A DNA stretch of 18,551 bases from a virus. Under the pieces are notes generated by a model, which was given only the letters and a program-made list of their open reading frames with translations, did not search any database and had not been told where the DNA came from. The translations under genes were made by a program, and so were the position numbers. Numbering within the stretch: the stretch's first letter is position 1; every line of letters begins with the position of its first letter. This document shows, one piece after another, positions 11,699 to 11,828 of the stretch. The DNA is taken from UHGV virus genome UHGV-0121047. One strand, 5' to 3'.

Positions 11699-11828
11699 GA
11701 AGACCGTTTACAGCAAAAATTAAACAATCTATTTCTCGGTAAAGAAAAGGAGAAGGTTCGATTCCTTCACTCGACAGATGTCGAGTTGGTGTAATGGTAG
11801 CACTTAAGATGATAAACAACGGTCTGGT
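11699..11828 (+). ncRNA. Stem-flanked element D containing a circularly permuted tRNA-like domain (T arm, closed acceptor-like hairpin, D arm); candidate Y-RNA-like (YrlA-like) structured RNA
   Basis: 8-bp closing stem AGACCGTT (11701-11708) / AACGGTCT (11818-11825); inside, in this order: T-arm GAAGG-TTCGATT-CCTTC (11752-11768), hairpin ACTCGAC-AGAT-GTCGAGT (11769-11786), D-arm-like GTGT-AATGGTA-GCAC (11789-11803). Confidence 0.4.

Follow-up and report, generated by a model that had tools for sequence, protein, structure and literature searches.

We analysed an 18,551-nt stretch of the virus genome UHGV-0121047 (throughout, the window) and found in its transfer RNA (tRNA) array an RNA element, called element D, that is real, conserved and selected for its RNA structure. 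Element D is Y-RNA-like in design: it joins a known YrlA-type module, which mimics part of a tRNA, to a different, hitherto unassigned and putatively protein-binding frame, and it lies outside demonstrated family membership. YrlA is the tRNA-mimicking Y RNA of the bacteria and mycobacteriophages that encode Ro60/Rsr (RF02553). Together with the Ro60-like protein encoded about 1 kb upstream on the same strand, element D probably forms a particle of the Ro/Y-RNA type, if the analogy with known particles holds. What was computed for this reading is how the RNA folds, that it is conserved and covaries, that the model of the partner has a Ro60 fold, and that RNA and protein are linked in genomes.

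Fold and register of element D

The DNA of the window is that of a Felixounavirus, with 95% identity to Felix O1-like phages. ARAGORN and Rfam define on its + strand an array of 23-25 tRNA genes (10867-15719), which is followed on the 3' side by the large terminase gene and preceded on the 5' side by a 471-aa open reading frame (ORF; 9286-10701). Within the array, the region of element D (11546-11978, 433 nt) holds no ORF of at least 50 aa on the + strand, and both programs call neither a tRNA nor a transfer-messenger RNA (tmRNA) there. Unconstrained minimum free energy (MFE) folding of 11699-11828 returned all the helices named in Table 1, at -34.3 kcal/mol (z = -3.16; 0 of 200 shuffles were as stable), the sole departure being a D stem drawn with 5 bp, i.e., with one extra outer pair.

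The register of element D is that of a tRNA. The T stem directly abuts the 3' strand of the acceptor, and two nucleotides (U8 and G9) precede the 4-bp D stem. The tertiary positions are also found, with a 7-nt D loop carrying A14, G18G19 and A21 and a T loop reading UUCGAUU. Element D lacks both an anticodon arm and a free CCA end. Its 5' region reads CAGAAGACCGUUUACAGCAA, and the linker that runs from the closing stem to the T arm is 44 nt long and holds both the motif UUACAGCAA and the V hairpin, the 3' linker being 14 nt long. In phage Maleficent, the V position is occupied by a hairpin of another sequence (UUUCA-GGGUA-UGAGA).

An earlier note, made from the sequence alone, had read in this DNA a stem, a T arm, a hairpin and a D arm, and all four lie on the + strand where it had placed them, in agreement with the MFE fold. 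Its description of a cloverleaf with a closed acceptor stem holds for the T-acceptor-D order, for the tRNA register and for the 7-bp stem closed by a tetraloop. The further claim that the ends are opened at the anticodon stem was only partly right: the anticodon side is indeed open, but the closing stem is not a plain extension of an anticodon stem, since long linkers, which carry a conserved single-stranded motif, lie between it and the tRNA-like core. The note had also set the element apart from split or pseudo tRNAs and from tmRNA, and we agree on both counts, as ARAGORN and Rfam call no tRNA and no tmRNA at element D and as the acceptor pair 3:70 is C:G, not G:U.

Over the T arm and the bases that precede it (11744-11768), element D shares 88% identity (22/25) with the phage's own tRNA-Ile(GAU) (12178-12202). 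This likeness hints that the tRNA-like module may be derived from a phage tRNA gene.

A frame shared by four elements

Element D has three shorter paralogues, elements A, B and C, which are located between tRNA genes and kept in Felix O1, in Mooglevirus and in Suspvirus. The combination of a 5' end of the form CAGAAGACC-NN-UUNCAGCAA and a 3' end of the form NN-GGUCUGG occurs four times in the array (elements A-D), against 0.66 occurrences expected by chance. The four elements fold alike, into an outer helix, an AGA loop and a closing stem, and the outer helix covaries between paralogues (GAC/GUC, UAC/GUA, AGC/GCU). The tRNA-like insert is present in D alone: elements A-C have a variable interior of 40-50 nt, a CUGG end, and no recognisable tRNA part or anticodon arm. 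In phages, the length of the short forms ranges from 50 to 72 nt. Across the whole family, the 5' side of the frame follows the register (A/G)G, seven nucleotides, NCAGCAA, and the 3' stem strand is followed throughout by a G, giving a CUG end that is often extended to CUGU(U/A). We propose the motif UUACAGCAA as a candidate protein-binding determinant.

Table 1. Coordinates of element D, of its parts and paralogues, and of the associated gene and promoter matches in the window
Feature	Position	Strand	Basis or remark
Ro60-like ring protein gene, proposed partner, Felix O1 ORF42 orthologue	9286-10701	+	Pfam DUF2828 + DUF7788/vWA
Two putative sigma-70-like promoters	10720-10748 and 10811-10840	+	Consensus scan, 10/12 matches each
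Element A, short paralogue, same frame, no tRNA-like domain	11036-11114	+	Covariance model (CM) R1, 37.8 bits
Element B, short paralogue	11203-11273	+	CM R1, 43.2 bits
Element C, short paralogue directly upstream of D	11607-11686	+	Best + strand Rfam match Dicty_Class_I_RNA
Element D, whole YrlA-like RNA, outer helix to outer helix	11694-11830	+	Fold; CM R1 self-match 11697-11829; 253 phage records
Outer helix UUAC / GUAA (4 bp)	11694-11697 / 11827-11830	+	Also predicted for paralogues A-C
AGA internal loop, 3 nt, between outer helix and closing stem	11698-11700	+	
Closing stem, 5' strand AGACCGUU (DNA AGACCGTT)	11701-11708	+	Pairs with 11818-11825 in the fold
Conserved single-stranded motif UUACAGCAA	11708-11716	+	In all four window elements and in distant loci
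V (variable-arm-like) hairpin UCU-A-UUUCU-CGGUAA-AGAAA-A-GGA	11728-11751	+	MFE fold
T arm GAAGG-UUCGAUU-CCUUC	11752-11768 (stem 11752-11756 / 11764-11768)	+	
Acceptor-like hairpin ACUCGAC-AGAU-GUCGAGU, 7 bp, tetraloop-closed	11769-11786	+	
U8 (11787), G9 (11788) and D arm GUGU-AAUGGUA-GCAC (11789-11803)	11787-11803	+	
Closing stem, 3' strand AACGGUCU (DNA AACGGTCT) and conserved G ('CUG' end)	11818-11826	+	

Conservation and covariation

The region of elements C and D is present in 253 phage records, with Escherichia, Salmonella, Shigella and Citrobacter as hosts, and the element is annotated in none of them. In the record of phage REP6, one pipeline forced a 131-nt 'tRNA-Thr' over the region of element D; this call uses the T arm of the element and has no credible 5' half, and we rejected it. 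The T arm is near-invariant across Felixounavirus, Mooglevirus and Suspvirus (with a single G-U wobble in Felix O1). The acceptor-like stem is found as ACUCGAC/GUCGAGU, as ACUCGGC/GUCGAGU, as ACCCUUC/GAAGGGU (loop GCCAAACA) and as ACACGU/GCGUGU (loop UACG).

Covariation was scored on a fixed-length alignment of the modules of 69 distinct long forms. In this set, 22 of the 23 pairs are changed on both sides, including all nine pairs of the frame stem, 4/5 of the T stem and all five counted pairs of the acceptor. The covariation score reaches 0.946, versus 0.23 for shuffled sequences (0/500 reach 0.946) and 0.11-0.19 when the register is slid. Other positions, which the parser did not impose, also bear on the fold: 74/76 family members retain U8, 75/76 retain A14 and 65/76 retain A21. 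Moreover, the Levitt pair 15:48 (48 being the base 5' of the T stem) covaries, as G:C or A:U in 49/76 (permutation p < 1e-4). Compensatory changes in every helix, in phages whose partner proteins are only ~40% identical, argue for selection on the RNA structure rather than on the DNA sequence, and against a decaying pseudogene.

The acceptor hairpin is closed in two ways, either by stable tetraloops, many of them UACG or UUCG, or by N-CCA after the 7-nt strand (10/76). The second kind is illustrated by the Mooglevirus orthologues (L003, 3146-3201; L018, 8449-8504), which read ACCCUUC-GCCAAACA-GAAGGGU, i.e., a 7-nt strand, a discriminator G, CCA and then AACA. If RNase P cut before GAAGGGU, this hairpin would mimic the 3' end of a mature tRNA.

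A Ro60-like protein encoded next to the RNA

The product of ORF 9286-10701 matches PHROG 850, 'RNA-binding protein'. Its AlphaFold2 model, obtained from a 38-sequence alignment, has a mean pLDDT of 86. When this model was compared with the PDB by Foldseek, the top 12 matches were all Ro60, over the full length and with a probability of 1.00 (E 1e-8 to 6e-7, TM up to 0.63). They include the Ro60 of the Thermus phage phiLo (9kop), RNA-bound Ro60 (9nfa, 2i91, 1yvp) and Rsr of D. radiodurans, and isolated vWA domains rank below all of them. The predicted model shows the two features of Ro60, a HEAT-repeat ring and a vWA domain with a MIDAS, the residues of the latter (D279/S281/S283, T349 and D381) being invariant in the alignment. 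We conclude from the model that the product is, as predicted, a divergent structural relative of Ro60 and not an annotated orthologue. The best 120 protein matches listed are all from phages, among which this divergent Ro60-like family is widespread. According to the papers retrieved, the DUF2828 family also occurs in plants, and our literature searches returned no report of a dictyostelid DUF2828 protein. At one distant DUF2828 locus, the neighbours include no conserved RNA-repair partner such as RtcB.

A probable orthologue of this protein has been characterised. In Bas63, a Felixounavirus, gene g130 lies directly upstream of the tRNA genes and its product is Ro60-like; gp130 counters the Ppl defence, and on its own, expressed from a plasmid or carried by T7, it allows plaques to form again on Ppl cells and protects T7 (2024 preprint, PMC11482910). 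By this description (a Felixounavirus, a Ro60-like product, a position directly upstream of tRNA genes), the ORF of the window would be orthologous to gp130. The authors of the preprint surmised the presence of Y RNAs within the set of tRNA genes and located none (PMC11482910). The literature that we searched holds no further prior report on such RNAs.

Linkage of frame and protein across phages

The linkage was approached from the protein side and from the RNA side. From the protein side, we collected 80 viral loci encoding relatives of the product of ORF 9286-10701 and searched them with CM R1, a model built solely from six Ounavirinae copies. It gave 50 matches in 69 sources; 49/50 were on the strand of the gene, and many directly flanked it. 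At 65 distant DUF2828 loci, whose proteins share 38-47% identity, the strict frame is found within 1 kb on the gene strand in 44/65, versus 8/65 on the opposite strand. Narrowing the distance to 300 nt leaves 31 loci for the gene strand and 1 for the other.

From the RNA side, IMG/VR was scanned for the pattern UUACAGCAA-N18-48-GGUUCGANUCC, which gave 131 matches. A gene matching the DUF2828 profile is present in the fetched piece for 45 of these 131, in every case (45/45) on the strand of the RNA pattern, with a median separation of 392 nt. We defined a strict architecture, in which the T arm runs directly into a perfect hairpin, a D arm begins 2 nt further on, and the closing stem is in register and has a G behind it. 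It is complete in 46% of the 113 testable matches, versus 0.13% of controls with a shuffled downstream sequence. One match to the RNA pattern lies on L098, a contig from a giant-virus metagenome-assembled genome (IMGVR_UViG_GVMAG-M-3300017772-13, 10040-10091, - strand), with no DUF2828 gene in the fetched piece; it may bear on the occurrence of the frame in both phages and eukaryotes.

The short frames of other phages can hold another part of a tRNA. In 28/155 of them the interior contains a 5-bp stem and a 7-nt loop of the form YU-NNN-RN, versus 1.1% of shuffled interiors (examples are L085 1657, L087 991, L091 9383, L109 4616, L151 8159 and L179 770). In 11 of those 28, the loop is CUUUUAA, the anticodon loop of tRNA-Lys(UUU), which is the substrate of the anticodon nucleases PrrC and RloC. 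As far as can be read from these sequences, one and the same frame is predicted to display a tRNA top half in some RNAs and an anticodon arm in others.

Comparison with known RNAs

The closest known design is that of YrlA, an RNA bound by Ro60/Rsr and modified by TruB and DusA. Chen et al. 2014 (PMC4201824) described YrlA RNAs as Y RNAs that are encoded next to Ro60 and whose effector domain carries V, T, acceptor-like and D stem-loops mimicking tRNA. In their study, the Ro-binding strand carries GNCGAAN0-1G, the Levitt pair was taken as evidence of a tRNA-like fold, and tRNA dimers were noted to be able to imitate the pattern of T, acceptor-like and D stems (PMC4201824). The RF02553 consensus and element D agree in topology: an enclosing stem, then V, T, acceptor-like and D hairpins in this order. 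As in YrlA, the nucleotides of the tRNA tertiary structure are kept in the phage family, with covariation at 15:48. Its setting may also recall that of YrlA, with a same-strand neighbour gene whose product is of predicted Ro60 fold, and several Y-like RNAs are present per locus (cf. YrlA and YrlB). It differs from YrlA in several respects. The partner is a DUF2828/DUF7788 protein and not a TROVE/vWA_Ro60 protein; GNCGAAN0-1G is replaced by a stem, then UUACAGCAA, and a CUG closure; and the surroundings are a phage tRNA array and not an operon of the rsr-rtcBA type.

More generally, in metazoan and Deinococcus Y RNAs the terminal helix binds Ro60 and a second module tethers an effector (PNPase, the RYPER complex). 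Y RNAs encoded by phages are also known, Yrl1 and Yrl2 of the Thermus phage phiLo, which bind the phage Ro60. Element D shares with all of these the combination of a terminal helix and a second module. In contrast, their helix is bulged and contains CGAA, their partner is a canonical TROVE Ro60, and a tRNA-like domain is different or absent.

The frame, for its part, recalls an RNA of eukaryotes. The Class I RNAs of Dictyostelium measure 42-65 nt. Their ends pair into a 6-bp stem whose sequence varies with compensation, an 11-nt motif comes after its 5' strand, and the RNA opens with AAG and closes with CUGU. No function has been assigned to them, they have not been found outside Dictyostelia, and the RRM protein CIBP/Rnp1A is the one binder known (Kjellin et al. 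2021, PMC7919456). The Rfam consensus RF01414 gives the 11-nt motif as CCUUACAGCAA, and the phage UUACAGCAA is identical to its core. RF01414 is the best + strand Rfam match both for element C (14.4 bits, 11615-11682) and for the frame of element D (14.1 bits, 11702-11826). It also matches six short phage elements over its full length with 26-30.5 bits (among them L085 1658-1720, L032 7410-7470, L035 4727-4788 and L144 936-1004), three of which directly flank DUF2828 genes; all the phage scores are under the gathering threshold of 41.5. In element D, cmscan aligns GAAGACCG-UUUACAGCAA ... CGGUCUGG over the full length of the model. The phage frame likewise has (CC)UUACAGCAA directly after the 5' strand, an AAG start, a CUG(U) end and a variable interior. 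On the other hand, element D measures 126 nt from AGACC to CUG, with a tRNA-like insert of 100 nt, and the phage copies have no DUSE promoter and do not come from Dictyostelia. We treat this likeness as a lead and not as a finding, and we do not claim common descent.

Finally, permuted (two-piece) tmRNAs and circularly permuted tRNA genes share with element D a gene order in which the T arm and the 3' strand of the acceptor come before its 5' strand and a D-like region. They differ from the copy in the window, which has no CCA, no tag ORF, no G3:U70 pair and no anticodon arm, and in which the acceptor stem is closed by a tetraloop. ARAGORN reports a permuted tmRNA ('tmRNA*') on the orthologue L018; we rejected this call, a chimera made of the parts of three genes, with tRNA-Lys and a 'tag' 570 nt away.

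Proposed mechanism and alternative explanations

Two matches to the sigma-70 consensus (TTGACA-17-TAATAT and TTGACA-18-TAAAGT) lie inside an imperfect 28-nt direct repeat, D18 (window 10700-10840), between the Ro60-like gene and the first tRNA, i.e., upstream of the array of tRNAs and Y-like RNAs. These consensus matches are probably the promoters of the array. From there, at ~10720 and ~10811, element D would be transcribed together with the tRNAs. It consists of two modules, the frame, with its variable covarying helix, UUACAGCAA on the 5' side and CUG on the 3' side, and the tRNA mimic, with its T arm, closed acceptor and D arm. The enzymes that process the flanking tRNAs would free elements A-D, and the Ro60-like ring protein would then bind the frame. 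The tRNA-like module would in turn dock a host factor that recognises tRNA, either a nuclease like PNPase or an enzyme of tRNA modification, repair or cleavage. In this way, element D could gate or redirect the Ro-like protein during infection, or gate access to the ring. Elements A-C would be related RNAs that present this protein-binding frame together with another cargo. All the steps after transcription are modelled by analogy on the complexes of Ro60, Y RNA and PNPase. That the RNA is transcribed, processed and bound, which effector it engages and what it does for the phage is what we infer here.

Several results weigh against such a particle. At the level of the protein, phmmer against the PDB gives no sequence match of the ORF product to Ro60, and hhalign against the TROVE Ro60 of Bxz1 (gp220) gives a weak match (68% probability) confined to the vWA junction, so that the assignment to Ro60 rests on the predicted fold. 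The action of gp130 alone against Ppl implies that this activity at least needs no phage RNAs, and it limits the role that these RNAs can be given. As regards the linkage, among the 44 RNA-pattern matches with at least 2.5 kb on both flanks, 26 have no DUF2828 gene in the fetched piece. The parser that selected the covariation set demands pairing, so that the percentage of paired bases is true by construction and the informative parts are the diversity of pair types and the control with shuffled sequences. The copy in the window has A15:A48, a non-canonical Levitt pair. Lastly, the Ro-binding motif GNCGAA is absent from the 5' strand of element D, and RF02553 (gathering threshold 69 bits) reports nothing at E <= 10 on 11540-11985 or on 11690-11835.

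In a positive control, RF02553 finds the known mycobacteriophage YrlA upstream of Bxz1 gp220, with 32.5 bits, and it gives several of the distant long forms 31-42 bits, about as high as or above the YrlA of Bxz1. With this control working, the Rfam score and the missing motif rule out canonical YrlA membership. The likeness to Y-RNA-type tRNA mimics which the earlier note had seen is borne out by the V, T, acceptor-like, D order of YrlA and by the Ro60-like gene 1 kb upstream; it fails at the Rfam YrlA model and at the Ro-binding motif.

Element D could also act as a stand-alone decoy, a nuclease-proof top half of a tRNA that baits host tRNA enzymes or tRNA-targeting defence nucleases, the Ro-like protein being then a mere neighbour or a stabiliser. 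The position of the element in a tRNA array and the conservation of its elbow nucleotides agree with such a role, as do the anticodon stem-loops shown by the same frame in other phages (28/155, 11 of them with CUUUUAA) and the action of gp130 against Ppl without the RNAs. However, a decoy leaves unexplained the invariant motif of the frame and the tight, strand-specific linkage to DUF2828, and elements A-C of the window have no recognisable tRNA part; we regard this explanation as rather unlikely. Very improbable, to our mind, is a permuted two-piece tRNA-like molecule, which would arise through a cut by RNase P on the 5' side of G11780, trimming of the 3' strand of the acceptor and addition of CCA, and which would then be aminoacylated or used in the manner of a tmRNA or tRNA. 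It would fit the Mooglevirus sequence ACCCUUC-G-CCA-AACA-GAAGGGU and the NCCA found after the 7-nt strand in 10/76. The window, however, has an AGAU tetraloop and no CCA, anticodon arm, G3:U70 pair or tag frame; many family members are closed by a stable UACG or UUCG tetraloop; and ARAGORN finds no tmRNA in the window, its 'permuted tmRNA' on L018 being a chimera over several tRNA genes.

The elements could finally act at the level of DNA or of processing, as recombination substrates, as promoters (TTTACA...) or as RNase punctuation, with the tRNA-like part as the dead remnant of a tandem duplication. The frames are indeed direct repeats, and a weak promoter-like match (9/12 positions) covers the 5' ends of B and D. 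The T arm, 88% identical over 25 nt to the phage tRNA-Ile, could come from such a duplication, and tRNA dimers can mimic the succession of T, acceptor-like and D stems. We give this explanation the least credit, and very little of it: compensatory changes are seen in every helix, and the remains that two tandem tRNAs would leave, a D or anticodon arm upstream and an anticodon or T arm downstream, are absent. The particle formed by element D and the Ro60-like protein is the reading that we retain as probable.

Other features of the array

Just 5' of elements C and D, a tRNA at 11463-11545 is called by Rfam (45 bits) and not by ARAGORN. It is the orthologue of the tRNA-Asp(GUC) of Felix O1, with a 13-nt loop, CGUAAAAGGAUAU, in place of the 7-nt anticodon loop. 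The same 13-nt-loop form is found in phage REP6, where it is labelled tRNA-OTHER. The window may thus hold here a further tRNA-like RNA that lacks an anticodon.

The interval from element D to tRNA-Lys contains, at 11829-11974, a separate and very stable 150-nt structure (-56.7 kcal/mol, z = -7.0). It has no Rfam match, and its closing stem, ~23 bp long, is changed in a compensatory way in Felix O1. Inside it, the hairpin CAGACC-CUUUAGCAA-GGUCUG (11931-11951) resembles a minimal frame and covaries in Mooglevirus (CAAACC/GGUUUG).

Two protein genes of unassigned function also lie inside the tRNA array, on the same strand: a DUF7338 gene (185 aa, 13802-14359) and a DUF7217 gene (265 aa, 14748-15545), whose product also matches PHROG 289, 'GTP-binding domain'.

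Significance

Ro60/Y-RNA particles are known from animals, from some bacteria and from a few phages, and the partner of the tRNA-like domain of YrlA is still sought. The present analysis places four candidate Y-like RNAs beside a Ro60-like protein in the classical Felix O1 group of Salmonella and E. coli phages, a homologue of this protein having been reported to defeat a bacterial defence. The same RNA design recurs beside DUF2828 proteins in many uncultivated phages, and its scores stay below the curated threshold of every Rfam 15 family. The elements account for part of the 'non-tRNA' spacer of phage tRNA arrays, some of which pipelines label as tRNA-OTHER or as long-intron tRNA.

A wider reading can be put forward tentatively, as a possibility that we hold to be doubtful. 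The frame would be the feature by which the DUF2828 branch of Ro60-like proteins recognises its RNAs, both in phages and elsewhere; it would serve as a cassette for the display of tRNA parts against tRNA-targeting immunity, which it would bait, sense or neutralise; and the Class I RNAs would act as Y RNAs for a DUF2828 protein of eukaryotes. If this were true, the cassette would display the acceptor/T/D top half in the long forms and anticodon stem-loops, above all that of tRNA-Lys(UUU), in the short ones. The likeness to the Class I RNAs offers a testable lead on the function of these RNAs in Dictyostelium, and a phage of E. coli and Salmonella provides a tractable system in which to address the role of a tRNA-mimicking Y RNA.

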